From a virus (lineage: Duplodnaviria > Heunggongvirae > Uroviricota > Caudoviricetes), in the IMG/VR virus record IMGVR_UViG_3300035502_000495: 45,136 bases of DNA; one strand, written 5' to 3'. The translations under genes and the position numbers were made by a program. Below, piece after piece: positions 1,519-16,228 of this stretch. Under the pieces are notes generated by a model. It saw only the letters and a program-made list of their open reading frames with translations, was not told the DNA's origin and ran no database searches. Each line of letters begins with the position of its first letter. Position 1 is the first letter of the stretch.

Positions 1519-1639
1519 GTTTGTTTACCTCTCTTTTTATTTGATATATTTATTATACATCTTTATGGGAAAATAATCAATATACAAAATACACAAAAAT
1601 GCGGAAGAAAATTTGTTGAATATGTATATTGACAGGAAC

Positions 1640-1677
1640 TGGCAGGCTGACGTAGAGTAGCGTACGTCAGCCTGCCA
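1640..1677. repeat. conserved-loop hairpin E1 (15-bp perfect stem, loop GAGTAGCG)
   Basis: TGGCAGGCTGACGTA-GAGTAGCG-TACGTCAGCCTGCCA. Confidence 0.95.
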
Positions 1678-1697
1678 CCCAATTTAGCAAAAAGAAA

Positions 1698-1719
1698 GAG
1701 AGGTCTGAAAAGACCTCTC
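1698..1719 (-). terminator. intrinsic terminator
   Basis: GAGAGGTCT-GAAA-AGACCTCTC with a plus-strand A-run to its left (U-tract on minus), after the stop at 1724. Confidence 0.85.
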
Positions 1720-1723
1720 AAAT

Positions 1724-1927
1724 TTATGCTTCGTAAAATACTAAATCTCCATTATATACAGATGAAATACTTGTTTTTGTAATTTCGCCATGCGTATTTT
1801 TTAAATATTCTTCTAGAAGATTACATTCATCATCAGAAATATTATCTCTTACCTCGATAAAAGGTTGAATAATATCAACTGGGATATCAATAATTTCATC
1901 TGTAAATTTTGTTACTTTTAATTTCAT
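1724..1927 (-). CDS. hypothetical early protein (67 aa)
   Basis: ORF with GAGGTG RBS, ends at a terminator. Confidence 0.8.
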   Translation of the reverse strand: MKLKVTKFTDEIIDIPVDIIQPFIEVRDNISDDECNLLEEYLKNTHGEITKTSISSVYNGDLVFYEA

Positions 1928-1931
1928 ATTT

Positions 1932-2168
1932 TTACACCTCTCTTATATTATCAATTGTTAATTCTGCTGATACTTTTGTAACAAACTTTTCTGTAGGAAT
2001 AAAAAAAGTGTTCCCTATTTCTAAATCAACTGTATTTTGATATTCATTATCAACTTTTGTATCATTAATTTTCATACAAATAAATGGTCTTGTACCCCAT
2101 AAGAATACATCTCCAACACTTAAATCATCAAATTTTGTTTGACCTGTATATTTATTATTAATTTTCAT
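1932..2168 (-). CDS. hypothetical early protein (78 aa)
   Basis: ORF with GAGGAG RBS, in an operon with its neighbours. Confidence 0.8.
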   Translation of the reverse strand: MKINNKYTGQTKFDDLSVGDVFLWGTRPFICMKINDTKVDNEYQNTVDLEIGNTFFIPTEKFVTKVSAELTIDNIREV

Positions 2169-2171
2169 AAT

Positions 2172-2330
2172 TTAATTTCTCCTCTTATCTGAAATTGGAT
2201 TTAATAAATATTCATCTTTTAATTTAGTATATTTAGGTTGCGGACTTATACCTAAAACCTTTCCTAGTCCAACTGCCTCTTGATATGAAATTACCTCTTT
2301 ATTTCCTACTACATAAGTTAATTTTGTCAT
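2172..2330 (-). CDS. small hypothetical protein (52 aa, MTKLTYVVGNKEV..RRN), absent from the ORF track
   Basis: GAGAGG RBS, promoter at 2368-2396, stop abuts the next gene. Confidence 0.75.
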   Translation of the reverse strand: MTKLTYVVGNKEVISYQEAVGLGKVLGISPQPKYTKLKDEYLLNPISDKRRN

Positions 2331-2406
2331 TTTAAAATTCCTCTCTTTCTTTTTATTTTATATATTTATTATAACATTTTATCTTTTGTATGTCAAGTAT
2401 TTTTAT

Positions 2407-2667
2407 CTATTCTTCGTATAATACACACCCATTATATTTATCATTGCTTTCATTGCTTAGAATGTAAACCTCATTTAAACACATTGCTGTACTATCTAAG
2501 CCATATTTTTTTGAAATTTCATTAATAATATAATTATATAAATTATTTTCATCTATTCTATCAGTAACATAATCATTTGTATCACATGCCTTTAAATAAG
2601 GCTCAATAGTTGTTTTATCAGCTATATCTAATTTTATCGAAGCTCTTAATTCTACTTGTACTTTCAT
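2407..2667 (-). CDS. hypothetical early protein (86 aa)
   Basis: RBS and promoter at 2698-2726. Confidence 0.85.
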   Translation of the reverse strand: MKVQVELRASIKLDIADKTTIEPYLKACDTNDYVTDRIDENNLYNYIINEISKKYGLDSTAMCLNEVYILSNESNDKYNGCVLYEE

Positions 2668-2754
2668 ATTTATACCTCTCTTTCATTTGATATATTTATT
2701 ATACTACTTTATCTTTTGTATGTCAAGTATTTTTTTAAATTTTTTCTTTATTAT

Positions 2755-3024
2755 CTAATCTCTTTTGTAGTTCCTCAACTTCTTTATTTGTTTTTCCCAT
2801 AAGTTCCAATTTTTATAAGCGTAATTCATAATCTCTACAGCGTGTTGTACAAACATTTGTTTACTAGCAATTTCACATAACCATTGGAATACTTGATAAA
2901 TTTCAATTACATAAGGACTTTTTTCAAAGTCTGAAAAATGATATACAGTGTCGGGGTGCTTAGTGCTACCACCCCAACATTCACATACTAAATCATTTTC
3001 ATTATTTTTAAAAATCCTAACCAT
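2755..3024 (-). CDS. hypothetical early protein (89 aa)
   Basis: RBS and promoter at 3070-3098. Confidence 0.85.
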   Translation of the reverse strand: MVRIFKNNENDLVCECWGGSTKHPDTVYHFSDFEKSPYVIEIYQVFQWLCEIASKQMFVQHAVEIMNYAYKNWNLWEKQIKKLRNYKRD

Positions 3025-3066
3025 TTTTTGTTACCTCTCTTTTCTTTTTTATTTATCTTATATATA

Positions 3067-3255
3067 TTAATTATAATAAAATTCTTTTAATTTGTCAAGT
3101 GTTTTTTCATTTTCTTTTTTTAATTGATACATTCTATTTCCTAAACAAAACAGGCAACCGCCATGACAGCGACAACTTTTATCAATTTGCTCGCAGTATT
3201 TATAATAAGGTTTTCTGTGTTCCCTCCCATATTTGATAGCTTTATCCATGCTCAT
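3067..3255 (-). CDS. small basic Cys/His-rich (putative Zn-binding) protein
   Basis: CRCHGGCLFC motif; RBS; promoter at 3287-3315. Confidence 0.75.
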   Translation of the reverse strand: MSMDKAIKYGREHRKPYYKYCEQIDKSCRCHGGCLFCLGNRMYQLKKENEKTLDKLKEFYYN

Positions 3256-3374
3256 TTTTATTTACCTCTCTTCCTTTTCTTCATATAGTATACACCTAAT
3301 ACGGGATTTTTACAATAGGCAAATAGACAAATTTTCTGCGGAAAATTTATGCAACATTACTACTTGACAGGACT

Positions 3375-3412
3375 TGGGTCGCTCACATAGAGGAGCGTAT
3401 GTGAGCGACCCA
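3375..3412. repeat. conserved-loop hairpin E2 (15-bp perfect stem, loop GAGGAGCG)
   Basis: TGGGTCGCTCACATA-GAGGAGCG-TATGTGAGCGACCCA. Confidence 0.95.
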
Positions 3413-3418
3413 TGCAAG

Positions 3419-3447
3419 AAAAGCCTTGGGAATTTTCCAAGGCTTTT
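3419..3447. terminator. intrinsic terminator (possibly bidirectional)
   Basis: AAAAGCCTTGG-N7-CCAAGGCTTTT downstream of 3513..3923. Confidence 0.8.
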
Positions 3448-3512
3448 AATTTATTCATTTATTAAATTTTTATTAAATTTGCAAGGCGGATTTGCTCCGC
3501 CTTGCTTTTCTC

Positions 3513-3923
3513 TTAGGCAAGTGAGAAAAATGCCTTTTTCTTATCCTCGGTTCTTACAACCTCATTTGTAGCACACAATTTCTTAACTAGTGCTGATAGT
3601 TTCTGATTTGTCATGGTCTTAGTTTCAGTACCTTCTACATAAGTCTTTAATCTATCATCAGTCATAAGCTCTGAAATTGTAACAGGCTTATCAGTTTCAG
3701 CAAGAACAGTCTTAATAGTATCTAGGATAGCTTCATTTGCCTGCTGTGTCTTAGTGTTACCACTCTTATTAGATTTCTTCTGTAGAAGTTCAACCTCATG
3801 GTCGATAAAAGCTAAGATGTCGGCTTTATTAGCGGTTTCCACACTTTCTACAATATTTCTTACCATTTCGAAATACTGTGCCTTTGTTACCTTTACTACC
3901 TTTGTTGTGTTTGTGTTTGTCAT
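3513..3923 (-). CDS. putative winged-helix DNA-binding protein (136 aa)
   Basis: C-terminal KPVTISEL..TNQKLSALVKKL..VVRTEDKKKAFFSL resembles a wHTH; preceded by tandem promoters. Confidence 0.6.
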   Translation of the reverse strand: MTNTNTTKVVKVTKAQYFEMVRNIVESVETANKADILAFIDHEVELLQKKSNKSGNTKTQQANEAILDTIKTVLAETDKPVTISELMTDDRLKTYVEGTETKTMTNQKLSALVKKLCATNEVVRTEDKKKAFFSLA

Positions 3924-4126
3924 AATTCATTACCTCTTTCTTTCTTTAAAATTATTTGTTTTTGTTTCCTTTAATATATTTATTATATCATTTCTTTATT
4001 CAGTTGTCAAGACTTTTTTTAAAAATCTTTTTAAGATTTTTCTTTTCTCTTTTGTTTTTCTATATATTTATTATACTATTTTATTTTTTGTTTGTCAAGA
4101 GTTTTTTATTTTTTTTGTTGTGGGAA

Positions 4127-4279
4127 TTACTTTACATAATTCCCAGCAACTGCCTTGAGGCTCCCATCAGGATTGAAAAAAATAACATTATCTTGAATAA
4201 CTCTAATTCCTTTAGCTCTTGCCTCAGCTCTAAAAACATAATCACTTTTATACTTTTTTAAAAAATCTGCTTTACTCAT
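4127..4279 (-). CDS. small hypothetical protein (50 aa, MSKADFLKKY..NYVK), absent from the ORF track
   Basis: AAGAGGT RBS; promoters at 4316-4344 and 4412-4440. Confidence 0.75.
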   Translation of the reverse strand: MSKADFLKKYKSDYVFRAEARAKGIRVIQDNVIFFNPDGSLKAVAGNYVK

Positions 4280-4498
4280 TTTTGTTTACCTCTTTCCTTT
4301 TCTTTTTATATATTTATTATATCATTTCTTATAAGGTTTGTCAAGACTTTTTTTAAAATTTTTTATTTTTTTCTTGGTGTTGTTTCTGTCTTTCCCTTAC
4401 CTTATATAAATATTATACTAAAATTTTTTATTAATTACAATAGTTAAAATGACTAAAATTATAGGATTATTTTTGTGTATTTTTTTTATTAAAAATCC

Positions 4499-4527
4499 TT
4501 GACAAAAAGTGCGGCGAGTGGTATAAT
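4499..4527 (+). promoter_or_regulatory. perfect plus-strand sigmaA promoter, back-to-back with the early promoters and pointing into hairpin E3
   Basis: TTGACA-17-TATAAT with extended -10 TG. Confidence 0.8.
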
Positions 4528-4536
4528 AGAATTTTC

Positions 4537-4570
4537 GGGCAGCCACGTAGAGCAGCGTACGTGGCTGCCC
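4537..4570. repeat. conserved-loop hairpin E3 (13-bp perfect stem, loop GAGCAGCG)
   Basis: GGGCAGCCACGTA-GAGCAGCG-TACGTGGCTGCCC. Confidence 0.95.
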
Positions 4571-4590
4571 CGTCAAGAATAAAAAAGAAA

Positions 4591-4614
4591 AGAGAGGTCT
4601 GAAAAGACCTCTCT
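4591..4614 (-). terminator. intrinsic terminator
   Basis: AGAGAGGTCT-GAAA-AGACCTCTCT overlapping the stop of 4613..4921; U-tract on minus. Confidence 0.85.
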
Positions 4615-4921
4615 AAGCATAATCACCCTCATTATCTTGCCATTCTTCTTTTGTAATGATATCAAAATTACCCCAACAATCTGACCTAAAAAATTCTTGC
4701 GCCTGCTCGATAGCGTCATCATAATCTTCTAAGGTTTCATAGTCATCACTATCGATATCTTCTGTTGCTAAATACATTAATGACTCTGTATGGTCTTGGA
4801 CTAATTCATCTAAGTATTCATTCAAATGTTCTTTTGTTTGCTCTTGTTTAAAACAGATATATTTATCCTCATCAAAACCGCAGTAAGGAGTTGTTAAATA
4901 AAAATGAACGTATTGTTCCAT
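4613..4921 (-). CDS. highly acidic small protein (102 aa), DNA-mimic candidate
   Basis: 30 D/E versus 5 K/R by manual count; GAAGGTG RBS. Confidence 0.8.
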   Translation of the reverse strand: MEQYVHFYLTTPYCGFDEDKYICFKQEQTKEHLNEYLDELVQDHTESLMYLATEDIDSDDYETLEDYDDAIEQAQEFFRSDCWGNFDIITKEEWQDNEGDYA

Positions 4922-4941
4922 ATTTTCACCTTCTTTCTTTT

Positions 4942-5022
4942 AGGGCTGAACTTCTTTTCCTAAGCAATCAACTTCTTTACCAAGAAATCAATCGCCTGTA
5001 CTTGTTAGAAGTCCGACACCCT
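4942..5022 (-). ncRNA. structured RNA A (G.U-containing hairpin, leader or sRNA)
   Basis: Starts just after promoter 5035-5063; 8+5-bp outer stems enclose a 14-bp hairpin with 4 G.U pairs; no ORF. Confidence 0.6.
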
Positions 5023-5059
5023 TTATTTATATTTATTATATCATTTTATTTTTCTTTTG

Positions 5060-5302
5060 TCAATAGATTTTATCAATTTTCATTGTTGTAATAGAAAAAC
5101 AGTCTATAGGAGATAAACGACACACATCTTCTAATCGGTAGTATTTTCCATTTTCATCAAAAAAATCATCATCAGTTCTTTCAGCAATTTTAGTATTAAT
5201 ACAATTTTTAGCTTTTTCTTCAGTTGTAAAAATACCTATCGCTTTTTCACAACCATTTGCTATGTCAATGCACTCATTAACTATATACAATTTATTTATC
5301 AT
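5060..5302 (-). CDS. hypothetical early protein (80 aa)
   Basis: ORF with AGAGAGG RBS. Confidence 0.8.
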   Translation of the reverse strand: MINKLYIVNECIDIANGCEKAIGIFTTEEKAKNCINTKIAERTDDDFFDENGKYYRLEDVCRLSPIDCFSITTMKIDKIY

Positions 5303-5353
5303 ATTTGATTGCCTCTCTTTTATTTGATATATTTATTATAGCATTTTATTTTT

Positions 5354-5575
5354 TTATTTATCGCCCCATTTTAATTCAACTTTTCCAAAAGTTATTTTAC
5401 AAGTAATAAGAATAAAAAGAAGTTCTTTATAACTTAAAATTGGAATACAAGCAAAATATCCATTAAGAATAATTAATACTTGTTTAATTAATAATGGTGG
5501 AATAGCAATAAAGATAATTAATACTAATATTAATTTAACAATGCTATTTACTATTTTTATATACTCTTCGTTCAT
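5354..5575 (-). CDS. small membrane protein (73 aa)
   Basis: Two hydrophobic segments; RBS; promoter at 5609-5637. Confidence 0.75.
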   Translation of the reverse strand: MNEEYIKIVNSIVKLILVLIIFIAIPPLLIKQVLIILNGYFACIPILSYKELLFILITCKITFGKVELKWGDK

Positions 5576-5697
5576 TTTTTTGTTACCTCTCTTTCATTTG
5601 ATAATATAAGTATATCATAATATAGGATTAAGGTCAATGTACAGAATAACTAAAATTTTGGTAAAAAATTTGTGCAACATTACTACTTGACAGGAAC

Positions 5698-5735
5698 TGG
5701 CTCAGCAACGTAGAGTAGCGTACGTTGCTGAGCCA
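5698..5735. repeat. conserved-loop hairpin E4 (15-bp perfect stem, loop GAGTAGCG)
   Basis: TGGCTCAGCAACGTA-GAGTAGCG-TACGTTGCTGAGCCA. Confidence 0.95.
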
Positions 5736-5748
5736 CTCAAAAGAAAAA

Positions 5749-5764
5749 AGAGGCTCAAGCCTCT
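5749..5764 (-). terminator. intrinsic terminator
   Basis: AGAGGC-TCAA-GCCTCT with U-tract on minus, after the stop at 5778. Confidence 0.7.
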
Positions 5765-5777
5765 CTTAATAAACTAT

Positions 5778-6167
5778 TTACATTTTTAAACCTCTTTCCA
5801 TAAGATATTGTATAGCCTTTTCACTGTCAAACCAGTTTAAAACGACTGATAAAGGTGGATTATCCTCTTTAAATTCGACAGTCATATACATATTATCTAA
5901 TTGTTTAGTTTTCCATTCTTTTATGTCTTTGATATGTTTTATTGTCATTGAATTAAAAAATGCAATTACTTGACCTTTTTTAAATTGCCATATATTAAAA
6001 GGTAAAAATATCCCATACTTACTATAATTTTCTTTTAAATTATCCCATGTAAAATAAATTTTTTGATTTTGGATATTTTTTTCATCTGCCAAAGTTCTAT
6101 TTGTAAAAGAGCTTATTAATTCATCTTTATAGTAAAATTTAAAGAACCCTATATAAAAATTTGTCAT
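5778..6167 (-). CDS. hypothetical early protein (129 aa)
   Basis: ORF with AGAGAGGT RBS. Confidence 0.85.
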   Translation of the reverse strand: MTNFYIGFFKFYYKDELISSFTNRTLADEKNIQNQKIYFTWDNLKENYSKYGIFLPFNIWQFKKGQVIAFFNSMTIKHIKDIKEWKTKQLDNMYMTVEFKEDNPPLSVVLNWFDSEKAIQYLMERGLKM

Positions 6168-6171
6168 TTTA

Positions 6172-6297
6172 TTACCTCTCTTTTTTCTTTAATTCTTTTA
6201 ATTTGTTAATTTGTTCGCCATATGTTGGCGGTTTGCCATTTACCGCTTTATATCTCCATATCCAGTTATTTAGAACTTGTTGAATTTTATCTGTCAT
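6172..6297 (-). CDS. small hypothetical protein (41 aa, MTDKIQQVLNNWIWRY..KKER), absent from the ORF track
   Basis: Promoter at 6332-6360; GAAGG RBS-like sequence; stop lies in the RBS of the next gene. Confidence 0.6.
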   Translation of the reverse strand: MTDKIQQVLNNWIWRYKAVNGKPPTYGEQINKLKELKKKER

Positions 6298-6363
6298 AAC
6301 CGCCAACCTTCTTTCTTTTCTTTATATATTTATTATACTACTTTATTTATCATTTGTCAACAG

Positions 6364-6642
6364 TTATTCTTCAACCACTGTTAAAAAATTTAAACATTTA
6401 GATTTTTCATCATACAAAATATGCAAGTGTCCTTCGTCTGCCACACATTTCATAGTAGAGTGATTAATGACTTCTAACATTGTTAAGTCAGACATTTCTA
6501 CATTTTCTTCTAAAGATACGCTATCTACAATATGTGGGATTATGATTTCATTCTCCGACTTCTCAATAAAATCAACTTCCATGAATGATAAAAAATTTTT
6601 AATTCTAGCAAAACTATTTCTAATAAAAATATTGTGTTCCAT
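6364..6642 (-). CDS. hypothetical early protein (92 aa)
   Basis: ORF with AGAGGT RBS. Confidence 0.8.
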   Translation of the reverse strand: MEHNIFIRNSFARIKNFLSFMEVDFIEKSENEIIIPHIVDSVSLEENVEMSDLTMLEVINHSTMKCVADEGHLHILYDEKSKCLNFLTVVEE

Positions 6643-6728
6643 TTTATTACCTCTTTCTTTAAATGTTTTTTGTTTACATTTATATTATCTCTTTTGTATG
6701 TCAAGCATTTTAATTAAATCTTTTTCTA

Positions 6729-7196
6729 CTAGTTGCGATATTCCGCAACTAGTAAATCAACTAATTTAATTAAAATATTTTCATTTGCATTAATTGTATC
6801 GCCTAAATTCCAACCAATTCTGATTTTTTCATTGTCATCTATTAAAATTTGATAGCCGCCCTTTTTTCTAGTGCAATCGGCTTTTGTAGTGCCATATTTT
6901 ACAAGATGAATTTCATCATATGGAAACTGATATTTTGCAAGCCATTCTTTTTTTGCTTTTCTAACTTTTTCATCATATTCTTTTGAGCTATCTTTTGCCA
7001 ACCAACTTGTGATTACAATTTCCCAACCATTAGTTTTTAATAATCCTAAGATACTTGCAAGCGTGTCCATATCATACATTGGTTTTGCAATTTCATATGG
7101 TCTTGCATTTTCACTTCTCAAATCAACTAACCAATTTTCAACTCCATATAAATTTGCTAAAGTGCCGTCCATGTCAAATACTAATACTTTATTCAT
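6729..7196 (-). CDS. HAD-superfamily phosphatase, 5'(3')-deoxyribonucleotidase-like
   Basis: Motif I FDMDGT, motif II ITS, motif IV LIDDN. Confidence 0.8.
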   Translation of the reverse strand: MNKVLVFDMDGTLANLYGVENWLVDLRSENARPYEIAKPMYDMDTLASILGLLKTNGWEIVITSWLAKDSSKEYDEKVRKAKKEWLAKYQFPYDEIHLVKYGTTKADCTRKKGGYQILIDDNEKIRIGWNLGDTINANENILIKLVDLLVAEYRN

Positions 7197-7289
7197 TTTT
7201 ATTACCTCTCTTTTCTTTTCTTTATATATTTATTATAATACTTTATTTTTTATTTGTCAATAGTTTTTTTGAAAAAAGCTAAATTTTTT

Positions 7290-7736
7290 TTATTTAGCTT
7301 TTTTCAATTTTTCTAGCGTTCTTTCAACTACTATTTGAGCACCATTAAATTTAATTTGCACTTGTTTACCATTAATTTCTAAATCACCACTTACATAAAA
7401 TGGTACATTGTCTTTACCTCTAAATTCTTGACCATTCATTTCAGAAATAATTTTTTCAAACTGTACACCCTTATTATAATCACCATTTAAAATGTTTTCA
7501 TTTCCAATTGATACAGCTCCTTTTTTAATTAATTGTTTTTGATAATTTTGAGGCAATCTTAATTGTAATTTTGCACAACCGCCCTTTTTACTACTTTCAT
7601 GCTCAACTCTCATGTATCTTGGCATAATTTCGTTAACTTCTATCATATAAACTTCATGTTTATAAATAAATCCTAAAATATAGCTATCTGCGGCTGAAAA
7701 TTTTCTATAATTTCTAATCATTGTTTGTTTTGTCAT
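7290..7736 (-). CDS. hypothetical protein, possible PD-(D/E)XK-like fold (148 aa)
   Basis: NKGVQFE..SGDLEINGKQVQIK pattern; RBS; promoter at 7771-7799. Confidence 0.55.
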   Translation of the reverse strand: MTKQTMIRNYRKFSAADSYILGFIYKHEVYMIEVNEIMPRYMRVEHESSKKGGCAKLQLRLPQNYQKQLIKKGAVSIGNENILNGDYNKGVQFEKIISEMNGQEFRGKDNVPFYVSGDLEINGKQVQIKFNGAQIVVERTLEKLKKAK

Positions 7737-7832
7737 GGTCTTTTACCTCTTTCCTTTTCTTTATATATTTATTATAGCACGTTTAATGTGACTTGTCAAC
7801 TACTTTTTTAAAATTTTTTTATTTTCCCCAAT

Positions 7833-7911
7833 GGGGCTGTCAGTCACCTTAAACCAACCGCCTAGCCATATACTAAACGACCAATCCAAGTAGTGTGACC
7901 TCCGCAACCCC
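7833..7911 (-). ncRNA. structured RNA B (79-nt G.U-rich hairpin)
   Basis: Own promoter at 7933-7961; 7-bp, 6-bp and 19-bp stems, the last with 10 G.U pairs; folds only on the minus strand. Confidence 0.7.
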
Positions 7912-8020
7912 TTTCCTTTATCTTATATATATATTATACTCCCACCAACCGCAGAAGTCAATATACAAAATGACTAAAATTTCGGGATAAAATTTATGCA
8001 ATTTTTTTCATCTTTTTCTC

Positions 8021-8049
8021 TTGACAAAAGTTGCTGGGTATGATATAAT
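8021..8049 (+). promoter_or_regulatory. perfect plus-strand sigmaA promoter pointing into hairpin E5
   Basis: TTGACA-17-TATAAT with extended -10 TG. Confidence 0.8.
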
Positions 8050-8058
8050 AGATTTTTC

Positions 8059-8094
8059 GGCGTGCTGGCGAAGAGCAGCGTCCGCAAGCACGCC
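8059..8094. repeat. conserved-loop hairpin E5 (14-position stem with 2 mismatches, loop GAGCAGCG)
   Basis: GGCGTGCTGGCGAA-GAGCAGCG-TCCGCAAGCACGCC. Confidence 0.9.
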
Positions 8095-8111
8095 TTGGAA
8101 AATAAAAAGAA

Positions 8112-8134
8112 AAGAGAGGTTTTTAACCTCTCTT
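8112..8134 (-). terminator. intrinsic terminator
   Basis: AAGAGAGGTT-TTT-AACCTCTCTT, U-tract on minus, after the stop at 8139. Confidence 0.85.
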
Positions 8135-8138
8135 ATAA

Positions 8139-8363
8139 TTAATTTTTAATTAAGCCTTCATTAATAAGTATTTCATAAAACAATTTGCAAGTATCTTTAT
8201 ATTCTTCATCATTTTCAGCTATATATTTATAATCATTTTCACTAGCTTCATCTGGTACACCTTCAGCAATCCATAATTCAAAATTTTCTTCATCTTGCAC
8301 TTCATCTCTTATGTATTTATCCATACTTTTTAAACACTGTACCTTTGCTTCTATTATTGTCAT
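8139..8363 (-). CDS. acidic hypothetical early protein (74 aa)
   Basis: RBS, promoter at 8398-8426, terminator. Confidence 0.85.
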   Translation of the reverse strand: MTIIEAKVQCLKSMDKYIRDEVQDEENFELWIAEGVPDEASENDYKYIAENDEEYKDTCKLFYEILINEGLIKN

Positions 8364-8444
8364 TTTGTTTACCTCTCTTTCCTTATCTTATAAATATATT
8401 ATAATATAAATTTGTAAGTATGTCAATCCTTTTTATAAAATTTT

Positions 8445-8564
8445 TTAAATTATTTTAATGTAAAATAATCCATTACTAATTGAATAAGTAAAATCATACT
8501 GATTAACTTCTAAAAATCTTTTCACTTTTTCAAATGCCTCTCTATTTGTATACATTATTGCCAT
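8445..8564 (-). CDS. small hypothetical protein (39 aa, MAIMYTNREAF..IKII), absent from the ORF track
   Basis: AGAGAGGT RBS; promoter at 8596-8624. Confidence 0.7.
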   Translation of the reverse strand: MAIMYTNREAFEKVKRFLEVNQYDFTYSISNGLFYIKII

Positions 8565-8631
8565 TATATTTTACCTCTCTTTTCTTTATATATTTATTAT
8601 AACATTTTATCTTTTGTATGTCAAGTATTTT

Positions 8632-8820
8632 TTATTCTTCTTCCATTTCATTTTCAATGTAGCTTTCAAATGTATTAAAGCCTGTTCTAGCATATACTAT
8701 ATTATCTAATATTGTGTTCCAATCGCCATTACAAATACATCTAACTAAATTAATTTCATTTGCGGTTGCAATTCCATATTCTATTATCATATCATATTTA
8801 ATACATTCGTTTGTGTTCAT
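8632..8820 (-). CDS. hypothetical early protein (62 aa)
   Basis: RBS; promoter at 8857-8885. Confidence 0.8.
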   Translation of the reverse strand: MNTNECIKYDMIIEYGIATANEINLVRCICNGDWNTILDNIVYARTGFNTFESYIENEMEEE

Positions 8821-8899
8821 TTTTTATTACCTCTCTTTTCTTTTCTTTATATATATAGTATACACCTTGCTATTTATATTGTCAAGACTTTTTTTAAAT

Positions 8900-9083
8900 T
8901 TTCTTGAGCGGGAGTCGAACCCGCATTTACATTGTGCGTCGCATTAAGGATTACCACAGTATATTTATGTACCCAATTGTACAACCTTGCCTATCACCTG
9001 CTACCTGTTTCGCCATGAATTTACATAGGAATCGAACCTACACAGACAGAACGCCAACAGCTTTTCCATTAAGCTATCAAGAA
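8900..9083 (-). ncRNA. tRNA-shaped RNA with a 109-nt insert in place of the anticodon loop
   Basis: Acceptor stem TTCTTGA/TCAAGAA, D-arm GCTT-AATGGAA-AAGC, 9-bp anticodon-position stem, T-arm GCGGG-TTCGACT-CCCGC; second T-arm inside the insert; own promoter at 9108-9136; no encoded CCA. Confidence 0.7.
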
Positions 9084-9147
9084 ATAATTAATTTATTTTC
9101 TATAATTATAATACCATGTTTTTATTAATTTGTCAATAGTTTTTTTA

Positions 9148-9291
9148 TTATTTTTTATAAGTATACATAATAGTAAAGCCTGTTCTTACATCAGTATACA
9201 TTGTGCAAAAAGCAATGTTTGGATTATTCTTTACTTTATTATAATAATTAATCATTTGACCTTTGAATTGGAATGTTTTTGTATATGTCAT
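9148..9291 (-). CDS. small hypothetical protein (47 aa, MTYTKTFQF..TYKK), absent from the ORF track
   Basis: AGAGAGGT RBS; promoters at 9325-9353 and 9416-9444. Confidence 0.75.
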   Translation of the reverse strand: MTYTKTFQFKGQMINYYNKVKNNPNIAFCTMYTDVRTGFTIMYTYKK

Positions 9292-9570
9292 GGTGTTTAC
9301 CTCTCTTTCTCTCTTTCTATATTTATTATAGCACGTTTTCAGAAGTCTGTCAAGAGATTTTTTAAAAAAATTTTTTTATTTTCTATTCAGTTCTCTTTCC
9401 TTACCTTCTATATATAGTATACTACATTATACTAATAGAGTCAATATACAAAATGCACAAAATAAAATAATAAATTTTGTATAAAATGCTGAAATGCGGG
9501 AACCGCCTTACGAACCTAAGTTCTCGTTTTCTAACTGGAATTAGTTGCAACTAACCATGATAAGGCAAAA

Positions 9571-9593
9571 CGAAAGCTGCGCGGCAGCTTTCG
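9571..9593. repeat. GC-rich perfect hairpin (10-bp stem, GCG loop)
   Basis: CGAAAGCTGC-GCG-GCAGCTTTCG. Confidence 0.8.
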
Positions 9594-9730
9594 ACCCGCC
9601 CAATTGTTTGAATTTTAGGAACAAAATAAAAAAGACCAAAAAACTCGTTTTTCACAAAATTTTTCTAGCCTTAGGTATCTTGGAGCTGAGCCGACCCGCA
9701 CATGACCATGTACGAAATCGCTTGAAAGAA

Positions 9731-9898
9731 TTATTTCAAGAATGTAGCAATTGCTTTAAAACATACGTCCGCATTATCTTGAGAATGTGTATCTTCTTGT
9801 TCGCTGAAATAATTCATTGATGCATTAAGTAAATCTTTTACTGGTATAAACTCAAATACTAACTGTAATGCGGCGAGTTCATTCAAATTATTGCCCAT
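9731..9898 (-). CDS. small hypothetical protein (55 aa, MGNNLNELAALQ..TFLK), absent from the ORF track
   Basis: GGGAG RBS; promoter at 9935-9963. Confidence 0.65.
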   Translation of the reverse strand: MGNNLNELAALQLVFEFIPVKDLLNASMNYFSEQEDTHSQDNADVCFKAIATFLK

Positions 9899-10016
9899 TG
9901 CATAAACTCCCTTCTTTATTTACTTTATATATATATTATATAATAAATTTTTTAAAAAATCAATAAAAGAAAATTAATCAAGCTTTATAGAAACATAGAC
10001 CGACCGCCCGCATGAA

Positions 10017-10040
10017 AAGAGAGGTTGAAAAACCTCTCTT
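10017..10040 (-). terminator. intrinsic terminator
   Basis: AAGAGAGGTT-GAAA-AACCTCTCTT after the stop at 10043. Confidence 0.8.
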
Positions 10041-10042
10041 AT

Positions 10043-10315
10043 TTATTTCCAACCTCTTTCTTCTTTAATTTTTTCGTATCTCTCTTTATTCTCTTGCTCT
10101 ATCTTTTCTTTATCATATACTCTCATTTTTGTTTTTGTATATCCATACTGTGTTAATTCTCTATTACTCCAATATCTTTTATTACAAATTTTAATAATTC
10201 CGTCCTCTTGAATTTTCTTTTTATTATCTATAATATATTGTTTACTAGGAACTTCTACTAATGTACTAACTGGTTTATAACCTTGATTTGAAATTAATGT
10301 TACTTGAATTATCAT
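10043..10315 (-). CDS. hypothetical early protein (90 aa, basic)
   Basis: ORF with RBS and terminator. Confidence 0.85.
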   Translation of the reverse strand: MIIQVTLISNQGYKPVSTLVEVPSKQYIIDNKKKIQEDGIIKICNKRYWSNRELTQYGYTKTKMRVYDKEKIEQENKERYEKIKEERGWK

Positions 10316-10368
10316 TTTATTTACCTCTCTTTATATATTTATTATAATACGCTTAATTATAAGTTTAT

Positions 10369-10404
10369 TAAGATTTCAGCCTATTTATGAAGGCTGAAAT
10401 CTTA
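10369..10404 (-). terminator. terminator-like hairpin
   Basis: 14-bp perfect stem TAAGATTTCAGCCT/AGGCTGAAATCTTA overlapping the stop of 10385..10519. Confidence 0.6.
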
Positions 10405-10519
10405 TTATTTGCCCATGTTTTCTAATTTCTATTTTTTTCTCTTGAGCACTCATACCATGATACCATGCGTATGTTCCATCTTCAAATAAATACCAACCTT
10501 GTGTTTTTGTTCTTGCCAT
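10385..10519 (-). CDS. small hypothetical protein (44 aa, MARTKTQGWYLFEDG..FQPS), absent from the ORF track
   Basis: AGAGAGGA RBS; promoter at 10556-10584. Confidence 0.75.
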   Translation of the reverse strand: MARTKTQGWYLFEDGTYAWYHGMSAQEKKIEIRKHGQIIRFQPS

Positions 10520-10523
10520 AATT

Positions 10524-10910
10524 TTTATCCTCTCTTTCCTTTTCTTTATATATTTATTATATACCTTATTAGTTATGCTGTCAAGACTTTTTTAAAAATT
10601 TTTTTATTTTATTTAAGCTCCCAATTTCTGTTATTTATATAAATATTATTACCATAAAATTTTCCAATTGGTTCAGCGTTTTTTGCTACTATTCCAACGA
10701 TATCTGTCACTTTATTTTGACCCCAAAAGCCATCTCTATCTTGAGTATCTTCTACAAACTCTATTTCTGTATTATCGTCCATGTTTTTAATTATTTCCAT
10801 TAATTCTCTTTTTGTCATTTTTATTTATCCTCTCTTTCCTTTTCTTTATATATTTATTATATACCTTATTAGTTATGCTGTCAAGACTTTTTTAAAAATT
10901 TTTTTATTTT
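10524..10910. repeat. 87-bp perfect direct repeat (10524-10610 and 10824-10910)
   Basis: Identical RBS+promoter+UP block, 300 bp apart, flanking ORF 10609..10818. Confidence 0.95.
10609..10818 (-). CDS. hypothetical early protein (69 aa)
   Basis: RBS; promoters at 10856-10884 and 10947-10975. Confidence 0.8.
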   Translation of the reverse strand: MTKRELMEIIKNMDDNTEIEFVEDTQDRDGFWGQNKVTDIVGIVAKNAEPIGKFYGNNIYINNRNWELK

Positions 10911-10972
10911 TGTCTTGCTTTTTTCTTTTCTTCATCTTATGTATTTATTATAGCATTGTTTACTACATACGT

Positions 10973-11025
10973 CAATAGACAAAATACACAAAATACCGCT
11001 TTGCTTTTGTGCATTTTGTCTATTG
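10973..11025. promoter_or_regulatory. 53-bp inverted repeat (21-11-21); best-preserved copy of the motif upstream of module promoters
   Basis: CAATAGACAAAATACACAAAA-N11-TTTTGTGCATTTTGTCTATTG (arms 20/21 complementary); degenerate copies start at 1578, 3313, 4438, 5635, 7959 and 9442. Confidence 0.8.
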
Positions 11026-11075
11026 TTTTTATGTCAGTCTATTTTAAATTACATGTGTTATTTTATCCGCCCTTA

Positions 11076-11337
11076 AACTAGCAGTTAGTTGAACTAATAT
11101 AAATTAGTCTGAACTACTTTTTGTTAGTTCCAGCTTACATTAGTTAGTGGTATCTAACTGTAATGAGTTTACACTAATTTATAAGACAAAACTTTTTTAC
11201 TTTACATTTTAAGTTAGTCTAATCTAACTCAAGTTAGTTGCGACTAGTTCTAGTTAGTGATATCAATCTGGGATTAATCCTGCCTAACTTGAGTTAGCTT
11301 TTTCAAACAACAAATAATTGCAACTAACTCAAGTTAG
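11076..11337. repeat. CTAACT/AGTTAG iteron-like array
   Basis: CTAACT-NN-AGTTAG at 11224, 11284 and 11324, plus many half-sites. Confidence 0.85.
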
Positions 11338-11675
11338 AAACCTCGGATTTGCGCGACCAAAGCCGCGCCAATTTTAATTAAAGTAGATATAAGATTAAAC
11401 TATTTTATATTTTATTAATCAAATTTTATTTTTATTATTCAATTTTATTGAAATATAATATTATATTTAATTATTAATTCAATATTTTTTATTATTTAAT
11501 ATATATTTATTGTCCCGCATAATTAAAAAATAATAATATAATATTCTGGGCGTGTCTCAATAAAACTATCTAAAAAAATTCTCTCTAGCTACACAGCATA
11601 CCTATGACAAAAGGTGGGGCAGTAATTTTGGGATTTTATTTTTTTGAAATGTAAAATGTGTTATGCCACGTACAA

Positions 11676-11773
11676 AAAATCTCCAAATGTATTTTAAAAA
11701 TAAAAATATGAAAAATAAAATCTCCAAATATATTTTAAAATATAAAAAATGAAATCTCCAAATATATTTTAAA
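11676..11773. repeat. three direct repeats of about AAATCTCCAAATRTATTTTAAA
   Basis: ATCTCCAAAT cores at 11679, 11720 and 11754. Confidence 0.85.
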
Positions 11774-11990
11774 TATCTTCCTCGCACAAACGAATTATAT
11801 TATCAACTTCAATTTCTGCATTATCTAAAATTTTTTGTAAATCATTAAGGTCAAAATAAAAATATTTTCTTACTGTAATTAAAGTTTTTTTATATTCATC
11901 TGAAATAGCTAATTCATTAATCATATCGTTCAAAACTTTTATTATTTTATCTCTTTTTTCTATTTCTACTTTCATTTCTTTTATAGTCAT
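11769..11990 (-). CDS. hypothetical protein (73 aa)
   Basis: GGAGGT RBS; last gene of the minus-strand operon. Confidence 0.8.
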   Translation of the reverse strand: MTIKEMKVEIEKRDKIIKVLNDMINELAISDEYKKTLITVRKYFYFDLNDLQKILDNAEIEVDNIIRLCEEDI

Positions 11991-12000
11991 ATTTACCTCC

Positions 12001-12207
12001 TTACAATGAAGATGCTATATCAATATCTGTATTATAAATAACATCTTTCGCATAATTAACTTCCCTATTTAAAACTACATATGCTGTTCTTAATGCAGAT
12101 AATTCTTCTTCTGTAAATCTCTTAGAGTCATTAATCATATTAAGAAGATTAGGTAATACTTCATCTTCCATTCTTTTTACTTTTTCTTCTAAGTGTCCAA
12201 TTTTCAT
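12001..12207 (-). CDS. hypothetical protein (68 aa; start moved to MKIGH)
   Basis: GGAGGT RBS; ATGA overlap with the upstream stop. Confidence 0.75.
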   Translation of the reverse strand: MKIGHLEEKVKRMEDEVLPNLLNMINDSKRFTEEELSALRTAYVVLNREVNYAKDVIYNTDIDIASSL

Positions 12208-12590
12208 ATCATACCTCCAAAAACATAGATTCCCCACGTCAAAATAATCTGTACCAAATGTATCAACTGGTCTTGTATTAAATTAATAGCTTTCTTATTA
12301 GCCTTCAAATCATCAACTATAGCATGAATACCCCAATTGATTACAAAAGTCAAAAGCAACATATTAAGCGGAATCCCCGACCCCGCCGCAACAATAGGAA
12401 TATGAATCATAAAAGTCCAACTAAAAGCGTGTTCCATCAAAGCCATTATATAATCATTCTTATATAAATCATCCGCAGCGTTCTTTTCCCACCATGACCT
12501 CTGCTTAGCAGAAGCTAACCAACCTTGTAAATAATAATCATCAACTATATGAAAAAATATCATTGATAATAATAAAATTAATATTTTCAT
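12204..12590 (-). CDS. DUF3307-like membrane protein (128 aa; start moved to MKILI)
   Basis: HIVDDYYLQ..EHA..HAIVD..DQLIH pattern in hydrophobic helices. Confidence 0.7.
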   Translation of the reverse strand: MKILILLLSMIFFHIVDDYYLQGWLASAKQRSWWEKNAADDLYKNDYIMALMEHAFSWTFMIHIPIVAAGSGIPLNMLLLTFVINWGIHAIVDDLKANKKAINLIQDQLIHLVQIILTWGIYVFGGMI

Positions 12591-12868
12591 ATCATACTCC
12601 ATTTTATCGTAGTTTTAAGCATCGCAATTTCATTTCTAACGCCCTGTAATCTATCTTCAATGCTCTTTATAGCGGCTTCCCGCGGTATATAAAATGTTAT
12701 TCCTTCCACAATAAAATCTAAAGGCATATTATTAAGAATTTCTTTATTATGTAATATTGTATATATTTGCTCTTCTTCTCTTTCTAACTCTTGTATACGT
12801 TTTAGAGTTTTTGTTATATTATTTATTGTTTCATCTTCTATTGGATGAAATACTTGTTTCTCTTCCAT
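12587..12868 (-). CDS. hypothetical protein (93 aa)
   Basis: ORF within the operon. Confidence 0.8.
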   Translation of the reverse strand: MEEKQVFHPIEDETINNITKTLKRIQELEREEEQIYTILHNKEILNNMPLDFIVEGITFYIPREAAIKSIEDRLQGVRNEIAMLKTTIKWSMI

Positions 12869-12886
12869 GTTGTTATAATACCTCTT

Positions 12887-13114
12887 TTATAAAATATCTA
12901 CATTACCCGCATTTAAATAATTTTGATAATTAGTAGCAATATCTCGTACATAAGACGCGGCAATTGTCAAATCTGTAGGCGATATATGAAATTCATTTAA
13001 ACTTAATATCACTTCTTCATCTGACCTTAATAGTTCATTTTTTGCCTTGGAAAATATCTCCGCAACTTCCTTTATCTTAGTAAGTTTATCTTGTGTTTCA
13101 TTAATATTGTTCAT
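12887..13114 (-). CDS. hypothetical protein (75 aa)
   Basis: GGAGGT RBS. Confidence 0.8.
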   Translation of the reverse strand: MNNINETQDKLTKIKEVAEIFSKAKNELLRSDEEVILSLNEFHISPTDLTIAASYVRDIATNYQNYLNAGNVDIL

Positions 13115-13199
13115 TATTTTATTTTACCTCCGCGGTTGCTCGATTAGTCCTCCTCTAATCCAGCTTTATTTTCCTTACAGCCCTTATATTTATTTTATT

Positions 13200-13667
13200 T
13201 TATAATTCTCCTTCATATGTACATTGACCATTAAAAAATGGGCACTCTAAATCACATTGGTGCATTTCATCATATTTACAATGCGGGATTTTAAAATTAA
13301 TAACAATTTCAGCTTCATCGAATTGTTTTTTCCATGAGGCTTGATTATAGAATCTAGCGGCCATCCGCCACCCATACTTATTTAAAATATAATCATACAT
13401 TTGTCTTAATCTATACTCTTGATTAAGACGATTTTCTTTCTTTTCTGCTTTTGTAAGAGGTCTAATCATATATGGTTCTTCTTTAGGAAATCTGCACCAC
13501 ATTATTTTTGAATCCTCTTGCTGTTCTTTTGTGGCTTCATTCCAATATATTTTAGGTCGTGGATTAATGCGGATTCCGCCTGGTCTAACTGTGCTAATAT
13601 GATTTTCCGCATCTAATATAGCTGCCCCTAAACCAGTCGCTACAAATATCTTATTATTTTCATACAT
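13200..13667 (-). CDS. hypothetical protein with Cys-rich C-terminus (155 aa)
   Basis: HCKYDEMHQCDLECPFFNGQC; promoter at 13701-13729. Confidence 0.8.
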   Translation of the reverse strand: MYENNKIFVATGLGAAILDAENHISTVRPGGIRINPRPKIYWNEATKEQQEDSKIMWCRFPKEEPYMIRPLTKAEKKENRLNQEYRLRQMYDYILNKYGWRMAARFYNQASWKKQFDEAEIVINFKIPHCKYDEMHQCDLECPFFNGQCTYEGEL

Positions 13668-13700
13668 ATTTATTTACCCTTCTTTATTTTTTATAATATA

Positions 13701-13810: not shown

Positions 13811-14986
13811 ATGGAAAATAAAAATTCACTTCTTTCTGATGAAGAGTTTAATGATAAGATTCAAGAAAAAGCAGATAAAAAAATTGAAGAACAAATCATT
13901 GAAGAGAATATCAAGCCGACTAGGAAATTAGATTATTCTTTAAAAACACCTGAAGAAAGAAACGAATTAGTTAAAAAAATTATTGATGAAACTCCTCCTG
14001 AACAGCTTACTAACAGATATTTAGAAATTTTGAGCGATTATATTATTTTTGCTATGGATAAGAAAGAAAGACAACAAAAGAAAATTTTAACTGATAATAG
14101 AATGGTAACTGTAAACAAGAGAGAAACATCATTTCAAGGATTAGCAGGGCAGCTTGAAAATGGAGAAGATGGTATATATAATATGATTGCAAATGACAAA
14201 AATATTATTTTTACTCCAAAAATTGAGATTACTCAAAAGGATATAGATGAAATTCCTGCATTAAAAGATTTAGTTGCGGCAATTAAAGAAGTTGAAAAAC
14301 AAGCTAAGACGGCAACTGGTAAAAAGAAATTTTTATTAATGAAACAATTAATTGAAATGCGGAGAGACCAGTATGAAATTAGAAAGGCTTACCGCCAACC
14401 AATGTATTTTACAAATGCAATAAAAAGTTTTTCAAAGATGTCTTTTGATGAACATATAGAAATTACTCCAGAAGGAGAAATTAAGAGTAATGGACTAGTA
14501 TCATTCTTTAATCCGAAGCATATTTCTGCATTACTTTGTAATTATTCAAGATTAAAAGAAGATTCTTGGGGTAAGTTTTGGTCTGATTCTTATTTTTTAA
14601 TGGAAGATTTAGATAATTTAATTGAAAAAACTTTAAAAGATAAATACCCGCTTTATTACGATCTCTTGATTTATAAAATTGATGGGAAACCTAATGCGGA
14701 AATACAAAAATTATTATATGAAAAACATGGAATTAAACATTCAGTAGAATATTTATCATCTTTATGGAGAAATAAAATTCCTAAGTTATTGGCGGAGCAA
14801 GCTCAAGAAGATTATATAGATTGGTATTATTTAACACAAGAGTATGGTAAATATAAACGTTGCTCAAGATGTGGACAAATTAAATTAGCGGATAATAGAT
14901 TTTTTTCAAAAAATAAAACTTCAAAAGATGGATTTTACAGTATATGCAAGGATTGTAGAAACCATAAAACTAGCTTAAAGAAGTAA
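13811..14986 (+). CDS. putative DNA-binding/regulatory protein with an HTH-like region and a C-terminal Zn ribbon (391 aa)
   Basis: LLIYKIDGKPNAEIQKLL..SVEYLSSLW resembles a sigma-region-4 HTH; CSRC..CKDC; first gene of the morphogenesis arm. ORF is certain, function tentative. Confidence 0.5.
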   Translation: MENKNSLLSDEEFNDKIQEKADKKIEEQIIEENIKPTRKLDYSLKTPEERNELVKKIIDETPPEQLTNRYLEILSDYIIFAMDKKERQQKKILTDNRMVTVNKRETSFQGLAGQLENGEDGIYNMIANDKNIIFTPKIEITQKDIDEIPALKDLVAAIKEVEKQAKTATGKKKFLLMKQLIEMRRDQYEIRKAYRQPMYFTNAIKSFSKMSFDEHIEITPEGEIKSNGLVSFFNPKHISALLCNYSRLKEDSWGKFWSDSYFLMEDLDNLIEKTLKDKYPLYYDLLIYKIDGKPNAEIQKLLYEKHGIKHSVEYLSSLWRNKIPKLLAEQAQEDYIDWYYLTQEYGKYKRCSRCGQIKLADNRFFSKNKTSKDGFYSICKDCRNHKTSLKK

Positions 14987-15001: not shown

Positions 15002-16228
15002 ATGCCTAGTTGTGTATGTCAAAAATGCGGAAAGACAATGGATGTTAAGCAATTTTATACATATAAAAATGGTAGTAAAACTGAATTATGTAAGAAATGT
15101 TTAACTATGCATGTTGACCCCTTTAATCCTGATACTTATGTATGGTTAATGGAAAAAATGGATGTCCCATATTTACCAGAAGAATGGAATGTATTAAGAG
15201 ATAAAGACTATGCCAAAAATCCAGCTAAATTAAGTGGAATGGCGGTATTTGGTAAATATCTTTCTAAGATGAAATTAAAGCAATATGTGGATAAAGAAAC
15301 AGGCAAACCATATGGATACGCGGATTCTGAAAGATTACAAAATAAAAATTTACAAAAGAAACAAGAAGAAATAGAAGCACAAAAGAAATTTGAAGAAGAT
15401 ACATTAGCAGCTTATGAGCGTGGAGAAATTAGTGAATCACAGTATAAAACTTTAACAAGTACAGAAGCTCAGCATCAAGCTGCGGAAGCTGCCTTTGCAG
15501 CGGGAACATCAACACCTCCCGTGCCATTTATAGGTAATAATAATCCATATAATGAAGATAATTTTATGAGCGAGGATGAATTAGCAAATCCCGCGGCAGA
15601 TTTAACTGAAGAAGATAGATTATATTTAGCTATGAAATGGGGCAGATTATATAAACCTAATGAATGGGTTGAACTTGAAAAGAAATATACTGAAATGATG
15701 CAGTCTTTTGATATACAAGATTCTGATACTACAGGAACTTTGATTCTTATCTGTAAAACATATCTTAAGATGAACCAAGCGATCGACGTGGGTGATATGG
15801 ATGGGTTTCAAAAGCTTTCAAGGGTGTATGATTCGTTACGAAAGTCAGCTAAATTTACCGCAGCGCAGAATAAAGAAGACAAAAATGACTTTGTTGATTC
15901 TGTTGGTGAATTAGTCACTATGTGTGAAAAAGAAGGTTTCATTCCTAGATATGCTACTGACATCCCGCAAGATAAAGTTGATGTCACATTAAAAGACATG
16001 AATAATTATGTTAAAAAACTTGTAACTCAAGATTTAGGTTTTGGTCAACAAATTGAAGATTCAATTAAGAAATTACAAATTCAGAAAGAAATGCGTGAAT
16101 CTGATGATGGATTTGATTTTGAAGATGATGAAAAACCATTAGAAACACAAGATTATGAAGAATTTTTTGACCAGATTCAAGAGCAAAAAGAAAAAGATTT
16201 AAAAATTTTTACTGAGGAGGAAGGATAA
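15002..16228 (+). CDS. Zn-finger protein, candidate terminase small subunit (408 aa)
   Basis: CQKC..CKKC; directly upstream of and coupled to TerL, as in the SPbeta-like layout. Confidence 0.5.
   Translation: MPSCVCQKCGKTMDVKQFYTYKNGSKTELCKKCLTMHVDPFNPDTYVWLMEKMDVPYLPEEWNVLRDKDYAKNPAKLSGMAVFGKYLSKMKLKQYVDKETGKPYGYADSERLQNKNLQKKQEEIEAQKKFEEDTLAAYERGEISESQYKTLTSTEAQHQAAEAAFAAGTSTPPVPFIGNNNPYNEDNFMSEDELANPAADLTEEDRLYLAMKWGRLYKPNEWVELEKKYTEMMQSFDIQDSDTTGTLILICKTYLKMNQAIDVGDMDGFQKLSRVYDSLRKSAKFTAAQNKEDKNDFVDSVGELVTMCEKEGFIPRYATDIPQDKVDVTLKDMNNYVKKLVTQDLGFGQQIEDSIKKLQIQKEMRESDDGFDFEDDEKPLETQDYEEFFDQIQEQKEKDLKIFTEEEG

Follow-up and report, generated by a model that had tools for sequence, protein, structure and literature searches.

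A tRNA-bodied RNA with an insert in place of the anticodon loop in one lineage of large gut or rumen phages

Phages carry tRNAs to resist tRNA-directed host defences, and they also carry non-decoding tRNA look-alikes, which are common in sequence data and, to our knowledge, essentially unstudied. The locus described here raises the question of what is encoded by a tRNA gene in which the outer body of the molecule is complete and a long insert stands where the anticodon loop should be: an interrupted tRNA, a wrecked gene, or an RNA with a use other than decoding. The window, meaning the whole stretch of DNA that was analysed (45,136 nt), comprises bases 26212-71347 of a 79.5-kb IMG/VR virus record (G000) that is estimated to be 60% complete. 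The virus is a large gut or rumen phage with a G+C content of ~28-30% in the window. Its structural genes are of the large siphophage type, and its portal protein is 39% identical to that of the gut phage Phass-1, the first 50 kb of which contain no tRNA-like genes, and 32% identical to that of 140-kb Enterococcus phages. At positions 1-13700 of the window, small early genes are grouped in a block on the minus strand, and TTGACA-17-TATAAT promoters recur among them. Elsewhere in the window, a gene for an HNH endonuclease (17944-18783) comes after the large terminase open reading frame (ORF; 16228-17799), an arrangement compatible with an intron in terL, and approximately 45 C-terminal residues of a sigma-factor-like protein (phrog_5767; 13811-14986) match HNH, endonuclease VII and Lar-like zinc-finger families.

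The same phage has a tRNA island (G000 298-6261) with six ordinary tRNAs and a tRNA-Asn whose anticodon loop is split by an HNH gene. The island also holds at least two anticodon-less tRNA look-alikes (C1:1745-1815 and 2760-2836), both outside the window; the anticodon position is taken by the tetraloop hairpin CGG-UAGC-CCG in one of them and by a loop of 5 nt in the other, and neither is called by ARAGORN. Between the island and the window, the phage encodes an ATP-dependent RNA ligase (PF09414 with a PHA02142 OB-fold; L080:3957-5174, G000 about 10256-11473) and a calcineurin-like phosphoesterase, a metallophosphoesterase (L080:6532-7347, G000 about 12831-13646).

The RNA itself spans 184 nt (9083-8900) on the minus strand, and together with its promoter and immediate surroundings it is made up of the following features.

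9136-9108, minus strand: sigma-70-type promoter (TTGACA, 17-nt spacer, TATTAT), with 11/12 consensus matches plus an upstream TG
9107-9084, minus strand: AT-rich 5ʹ leader of ~18-24 nt, which by its sequence would need to be removed by RNase P
9083-9077, minus strand: 5ʹ strand of the acceptor stem, UUCUUGA, 7/7 Watson-Crick with 8907-8901, a pairing also drawn by ARAGORN
9076-9075, minus strand: U8 and A9, read from the sequence
9074-9060, minus strand: D-arm GCUU-AAUGGAA-AAGC with a 4-bp stem, where positions 8-25 of the Rfam tRNA model align
9058-9050, minus strand: 5ʹ strand of an extended stem in the anticodon position, GUUGGCGUU, pairing with 8940-8931
9049-8941, minus strand: 109-nt insert that takes the position of the anticodon loop and, as a mosaic, combines tRNA-like fragments with two irregular hairpin domains
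9049-9043 with 9007-9001, minus strand: inner helix CUGUCUG/CAGGUAG, from sequence pairing
9041-9025, minus strand: inner T-arm GUAGG-UUCGAUU-CCUAU, which matches the T-arm motif and aligns with the T-arm positions of the Rfam tRNA model
8983-8968, minus strand: D-arm-like hairpin UGUAC-AAUUGG-GUACA, from the sequence, the sole exact copy in the window
8940-8931, minus strand: 3ʹ strand of the extended stem, GACGCACAAU, with one bulged A, forming 9 bp with 9058-9050
8930-8925, minus strand: variable region GUAAAU, from the sequence
8924-8908, minus strand: outer T-arm GCGGG-UUCGACU-CCCGC, identified by ARAGORN, Rfam alignment and the T-arm motif
8907-8900, minus strand: 3ʹ strand of the acceptor stem, UCAAGAA, and discriminator A (8900), with no CCA encoded
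8885-8857, minus strand: next promoter (TTGACA-17-TATACT), which serves a 62-aa ORF (8820-8632) and marks the end of the RNA cassette

The elements of the tRNA shell that the original prediction had read from the minus strand are all present in the sequence, as are the three parts that it had described within the insert (a second T-arm, the CUGUCUG/CAGGUAG stem and the UGUAC-AAUUGG-GUACA hairpin). It was likewise right that the locus has a promoter of its own and encodes no CCA, and that the bases for the canonical tertiary contacts are in place: U8-A14, A15-U48, G18/G19-U55/C56, U54-A58 and G53-C61 are all kept. No terminator lies between the 3ʹ end of the RNA and the next promoter.

That the shell and the inner T-arm are real tRNA-derived features rather than chance resemblances follows from their rarity in shuffled sequence. 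In its default mode, ARAGORN makes no calls in the window; with introns allowed it calls the locus, and in 4.77 Mb of dinucleotide-shuffled genome it makes a single call. A search of the 79.5-kb record for the T-arm motif, with a 5-bp stem, the loop TTCRANY and a closing G-C pair, gives 11 matches, every one of them on the minus strand; nine belong to the tRNA island and two to this RNA. Shuffled genomes contain 0.095 such motifs each, and 6.5e-5 would be expected per 109 nt. A comparison with Rfam, one of the checks originally proposed, placed the RNA in no family at the gathering threshold and, at E values up to 10, returned only two half-tRNA alignments to RF00005 (20.4 and 16 bits against a threshold of 29 bits). 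One of these joins the outer D-arm to the inner T-arm, and the other covers the outer T-arm and acceptor.

The insert is less orderly than the shell. Its T-arm comes first and is followed by 7 nt that have no pairing partner, the D-like hairpin appears only 41 nt after the T-arm, and a second copy of the D-arm string CUUAAUG stands at the 3ʹ end of the insert, all of which gives it the look of a patchwork of tRNA-gene fragments. The sequences that flank the insert pair with each other; they lengthen the stem by 4 bp and reconstitute no loop. The AAUUGG loop of the hairpin is complementary to UCGAUU in the inner T-loop at six positions, including two G-U pairs, and the two loops may therefore pair. 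The insert had been described as structured, which holds insofar as its helices can be paired in the sequence and has no thermodynamic support: with a z-score of -0.64 for its minimum free energy (MFE), the whole RNA is no more stable than shuffled sequence. The MFE fold contains the extended stem, as do all the constrained suboptimal folds. Constrained folds retain the shell together with this stem and differ within the insert, where the inner helices form in some suboptimal folds only. A 36-codon frame (8986-8876, minus strand) has a UUG start 8 nt after AGGUGAU, a Shine-Dalgarno-like string in the insert; it is probably spurious, extending across the outer T-arm and on into the next promoter.

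The RNA cannot read codons. A canonical tRNA has a 5-bp anticodon stem and a 7-nt loop with U33 and R37, and this combination is not found here; default ARAGORN returns nothing for the locus, and the Rfam scores lie below threshold. Of the readings offered originally, a tRNA-mimic RNA is the one that survives, with an intact body and no single excision that yields an anticodon arm with U33 and R37. One proposed use of such a mimic, as a decoy for anticodon nucleases, is unlikely in that form, since such enzymes would find no anticodon loop to cleave; the RNA may conceivably be a decoy for some factor that binds tRNA bodies.

The reading that we favour, at about an even chance of being correct, is that the locus encodes a non-decoding RNA with a tRNA body, trimmed by RNase P and RNase Z, which displays an extra module. 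Early in infection the RNA would be transcribed from its own strong promoter and would fold into an L-shaped tRNA body. Host RNase P would then trim the 5ʹ end and RNase Z the 3ʹ end, the latter being the expected 3ʹ enzyme because CCA is not encoded, after which the CCA-adding enzyme would add the tail. The prerequisites of a substrate for these two nucleases appear from the sequence to be present, namely, a 12-bp coaxial helix of acceptor and T-arm, the T-loop, a leader at the 5ʹ end and, at the 3ʹ end, a trailer that lacks CCA. The product would accumulate as a stable RNA without reading codons, its tRNA body acting both as a chassis for processing and stability and as a look-alike for proteins that recognise the elbow and acceptor end of tRNAs. 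The insert would add a second T-loop and a complementary hairpin loop, and a second elbow may form. Most likely, the RNA would bind or titrate some factor, of the host or the phage, by which tRNA bodies are recognised. We infer this processing, stability and binding role, whereas the anatomy, the promoter, the lack of any route to a canonical spliced product and the invariance among strains come directly from the sequences.

Several observations favour a non-decoding RNA of this kind, beginning with the complete shell, the lack of an excision that would restore an anticodon arm, the mutual pairing of the insert's flanks and the anticodon-less look-alikes in the tRNA island of the same genome. 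The dedicated promoter without a terminator is the arrangement of the other tRNA cassettes of the phage, and the tRNA island together with the PF09414 RNA ligase indicates investment by the phage in tRNA and RNA biology. Furthermore, non-decoding tRNA bodies appear to be a recurring feature of phages, because a single pattern scan of other phages found 28 free-standing elements of this type, many of them conserved across contigs (L021-L048; e.g., L022:649-698 and L047:3573-3620). These look-alikes have normal acceptor, D and T arms, with a 4-6-nt loop of the tetraloop type replacing the anticodon loop, and one form is conserved, with slight variation in its hairpin, across over 20 IMG/VR contigs. 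Within the phage group, a relative (G001, L081:2075-2292) has a tRNA shell in which ~58 AT-rich nt replace the anticodon loop and which ARAGORN interprets as Ser(AGA) with a 51-nt intron; no spacer separates it from an aberrant gene of 90 nt that resembles tRNA-Ile(UAU) and pairs poorly in its anticodon stem.

Variation among strains bears on the same reading. The RNA was found in seven metagenome contigs from seven samples, and the copies are 100% identical, whereas their flanks differ by 1-2%. Between positions 8600 and 9700 there are 32 variant events, none of which falls in the promoter or the RNA, where 5.3 would be expected (P ~0.003). The longest invariant run in this 1.1-kb neighbourhood (8899-9143, 245 nt) coincides exactly with the promoter plus the RNA. 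This invariance offers modest evidence of purifying selection; a recent sweep or a recombination tract could leave the same pattern. Overall, we rate the evidence for constraint on the RNA as weak to moderate.

The RNA is confined to one lineage. No homologue was found by blastn against GenBank phages, by exact and degenerate pattern scans of IMG/VR, or by a scan of JGI metagenomes. The RNA is absent from 15 related viral loci that were located through the sigma factor gene and searched with blastn and nhmmer, and from four whole related contigs (G001-G004). With no homologue outside one phage species, no covariation is available. Homologues of the downstream 62-aa ORF occur at 97, 80, 76, 71, 63 and 60% identity, and the RNA accompanies only the 97% group; a 47-aa ORF upstream is likewise limited to the RNA-bearing lineage. 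Among the relatives at 60-80%, the corresponding position is in some cases an 85-nt gap containing just one promoter. In other relatives without the RNA, the slot is occupied by an unrelated structured element rich in G+C (ACGGGGCGGGAGCGUAC...GCCCCGU, accompanied by more hairpins; L052:2770-2890, L055 and L057), the sole Rfam similarity of which is a weak one to RAGATH-7 (18.8 bits against a threshold of 111.8). The cassette of promoter and RNA, perhaps with the 47-aa ORF, is thus a recent acquisition by one phage species. The description of the RNA as novel thus stands in the narrow sense of a lineage-specific oddity, while neither homologues nor covariation gave it any broader support.

A number of these findings also weigh against a functional RNA. 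No homologue is known from the searches above, the fold has a z-score of -0.64, the invariance could reflect a sweep or a recombination tract, and the binding partner is hypothetical. Moreover, an insert pieced together from tRNA fragments fits an accident of recombination as well.

That accident is the basis of the leading alternative, a somewhat unlikely one in our judgement, in which the locus is a transcribed chimeric pseudogene without function: a phage tRNA gene would have been destroyed by the copying of segments from other tRNA genes, namely a T-arm together with the sequence trailing it and some D-arm-like fragments, into the anticodon region. Such copying could have occurred during repair of a break made by a homing endonuclease or by recombination between promoter-tRNA cassettes, and the phage does have HNH endonuclease genes, including the one inside tRNA-Asn. 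T-then-D fragments are what would be met at the junction of two tandem tRNA genes, the second CUUAAUG copy fits the same origin, the element is absent from all relatives and hence young, and the fold gives no thermodynamic signal. A functionless gene is harder to reconcile with the promoter and RNA forming the longest invariant stretch among strains (P ~0.003), with the retention of every tertiary-contact base and a perfect 7-bp acceptor stem, or with the 4 extra base pairs formed by the flanks of the insert. A simple insertion would, in addition, leave an anticodon loop that could be restored, which this insert does not, and pattern scans of IMG/VR found no donor tRNA with a matching T-arm-plus-trailer or D-arm sequence. 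The related suggestion of two fused, degenerate tRNAs fits poorly, given the perfect long-range acceptor pairing against unpaired inner 'acceptor' positions. An architecture scan (D-arm, short gap, T-loop, 80-110 nt, second T-loop) gave nine matches in IMG/VR and 24 in metagenomes; all are tandem tRNA or tRNA-like genes with their own acceptor pairing, and none is nested.

Within the preferred reading of a non-decoding tRNA-body RNA, a more specific version, which we consider unlikely, makes it a natural 'tRNA scaffold': a two-elbow mimic, with the inner T-loop and the AAUUGG hairpin as its second elbow, that titrates or bridges elbow-recognising factors. The second elbow is conceivable because of the complementarity of the two loops over six positions, a link that may or may not correspond to contact in the RNA. 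Candidate factors would be RNase P, a tRNA-sensing defence, phage RNA-repair proteins, and TROVE or vault proteins. Ponchon and Dardel reportedly engineered, in 2007, a tRNA scaffold for recombinant RNA in which an extended stem carries the cargo where the anticodon loop would be; the insert of the phage RNA is placed in exactly this way. The stable RNAs species 1 and 2 of phage T4 have tRNA-like ends and a function that is unknown. By analogy with both, a tRNA body or tRNA-like ends may give a non-decoding RNA processing by RNase P and RNase Z as well as stability. The scaffold is, however, man-made, and the two T4 species differ in architecture from the tRNA-body RNA.

A further alternative, which we regard as quite unlikely, is that the gene is an interrupted tRNA with a non-ribozyme intron, from which an unknown endonuclease and the phage RNA ligase, joining the halves, would produce a decoding tRNA. 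Genuine interrupted tRNAs do occur in the group. Besides the tRNA-Asn of G000, in a relative (G002, L082:7783-7922) a perfect tRNA-Lys(UUU) is interrupted at 34/35 by an insert of 67 nt with the fold of a small tRNA, a portion of which shares 77% identity with the 3ʹ end of the insert that bears the HNH gene in tRNA-Asn (G000 3179-3135). The ATP-dependent RNA ligase would supply the joining activity, and ARAGORN, run with its intron option as had been advised, does call the locus, as a tRNA-Leu(UAA) with a 106-nt intron at 31/32. That call is a forced fit: nucleotide 26 is missing, position 37 is U, and the 12-nt variable region is unable to form a class II stem. The phage, furthermore, already has a proper class II tRNA-Leu(UAA) of 83 nt. 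When every single contiguous excision between the D-arm and the T-arm was enumerated, none gave an anticodon stem of at least 4 bp together with U33 and purine 37, and thus no contiguous excision restores a canonical anticodon arm.

Known types of intron are also a poor match. A group I intron has a P1-P9 core of ~200 nt or more, a U before the 5ʹ splice site and a terminal G. Here the insert measures 106-109 nt, G is the last base of the 5ʹ exon and C that of the insert, and Rfam has no match, so the original exclusion of a group I intron holds. The locus resembles the group I intron of cyanobacterial and plastid tRNA-Leu(UAA) in the anticodon that ARAGORN assigns and in having an intervening sequence; it differs in the length of that sequence (106-109 nt against at least 200 nt), in its position (31/32, not 34/35) and in the lack of an Rfam intron match. 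The bulge-helix-bulge motif of protein-spliced archaeal and eukaryal introns consists of two 3-nt bulges separated by a 4-bp helix, whereas the stem at this junction runs unbroken over 9 bp but for one bulged A.

There is a published precedent for phage tRNA introns with an unexplained mechanism in the "enigmatic" introns that Lak megaphages carry (Devoto et al. 2019, PMC6784885). The present locus shares with these, and with the inserts of the G002 tRNA-Lys and the G000 tRNA-Asn, an interruption in the anticodon region, an insert too short for a group I ribozyme, tRNA-like parts and identity of the insert across samples. Removal of the Lak, G002 and G000 inserts restores a canonical loop, and each of those inserts folds as a small tRNA; the 9049-8941 insert does neither. 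In genuine tRNA-shaped inserts, the D-arm precedes the T-arm, which abuts a paired 3ʹ acceptor strand. This insert has T before D, no paired ends that would serve as an acceptor stem closed by the T-arm, and no CCA. The earlier idea of a precursor with an unusual intron is weakened accordingly, the true introns of the group restoring perfect loops.

The last alternative, an analogue of Y RNA or vault RNA tethered through its T and D elements to TROVE (Ro60/TEP1-like) or vault-type proteins, is highly improbable. Bacterial and phage YrlA RNAs do have T and D arms in T-then-D order, and their pattern runs from GNCGAAN0-1G near the 5ʹ end through V, T, an acceptor-like stem-loop and D, with a TROVE (Ro60) gene within ~4 kb (Chen et al. 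2014, PMC4201824). Like YrlA, the RNA is non-coding, mimics T and D arms in the same inner order and would probably be recognised by tRNA-processing enzymes; a GGCGAA string (9014-9009) resembles the GNCGAA motif. Unlike in YrlA, the string lies between T and D instead of near the 5ʹ end and fails at the last motif position, there is no acceptor-like stem-loop between the inner elements, the ends pair as a tRNA acceptor stem and not as a Ro60-binding helix, and no TROVE gene is adjacent or was found in the 79.5-kb record. Covariance models agree: at E values up to 10, Rfam gives no match to Y RNA/YrlA or vault RNA, nor to a group I intron, tmRNA or self-cleaving ribozyme.

Other identities were considered and set aside. 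The hallmarks of tmRNA are the G3-U70 alanine identity pair, a stemless D-loop, a tag reading frame and pseudoknots. The RNA resembles tmRNA in its acceptor stem and T-arm and in the large internal domain that replaces the anticodon arm, and it differs in its 3-70 pair, which is C3-G70, in its full, 4-bp D-stem and in having neither pseudoknots nor a tag frame in its 184 nt. ARAGORN in tmRNA mode (-m) is negative and Rfam is blank, in agreement with the original exclusion of tmRNA. By eye, CGAAAC is present and the CUGANGA box of a hammerhead ribozyme is absent. No complementarity of at least 12 nt to the 79.5-kb record exists that would suggest an antisense regulator, and matches are fewer than for shuffled inserts. 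The TGTAC-N6-GTACA palindrome is single-copy, contrary to a role as a DNA operator. Finally, the shell is not demonstrably paralogous to one particular phage tRNA: its identity to all of them is 69-77% and does not discriminate.

The locus is, then, a real and unusual tRNA-derived gene of one phage lineage, outside the curated RNA families and outside the tRNA-shaped-intron group. On either principal reading it serves as a clean negative control for the tRNA-shaped-intron family of this phage group, being an example of a non-member. As a pseudogene, it would document how chimeric tRNA genes arise in tRNA islands rich in homing endonucleases. As a stable and functional RNA, it would be the natural counterpart to engineered tRNA scaffolds and would show that phages elaborate tRNA bodies into larger RNAs.
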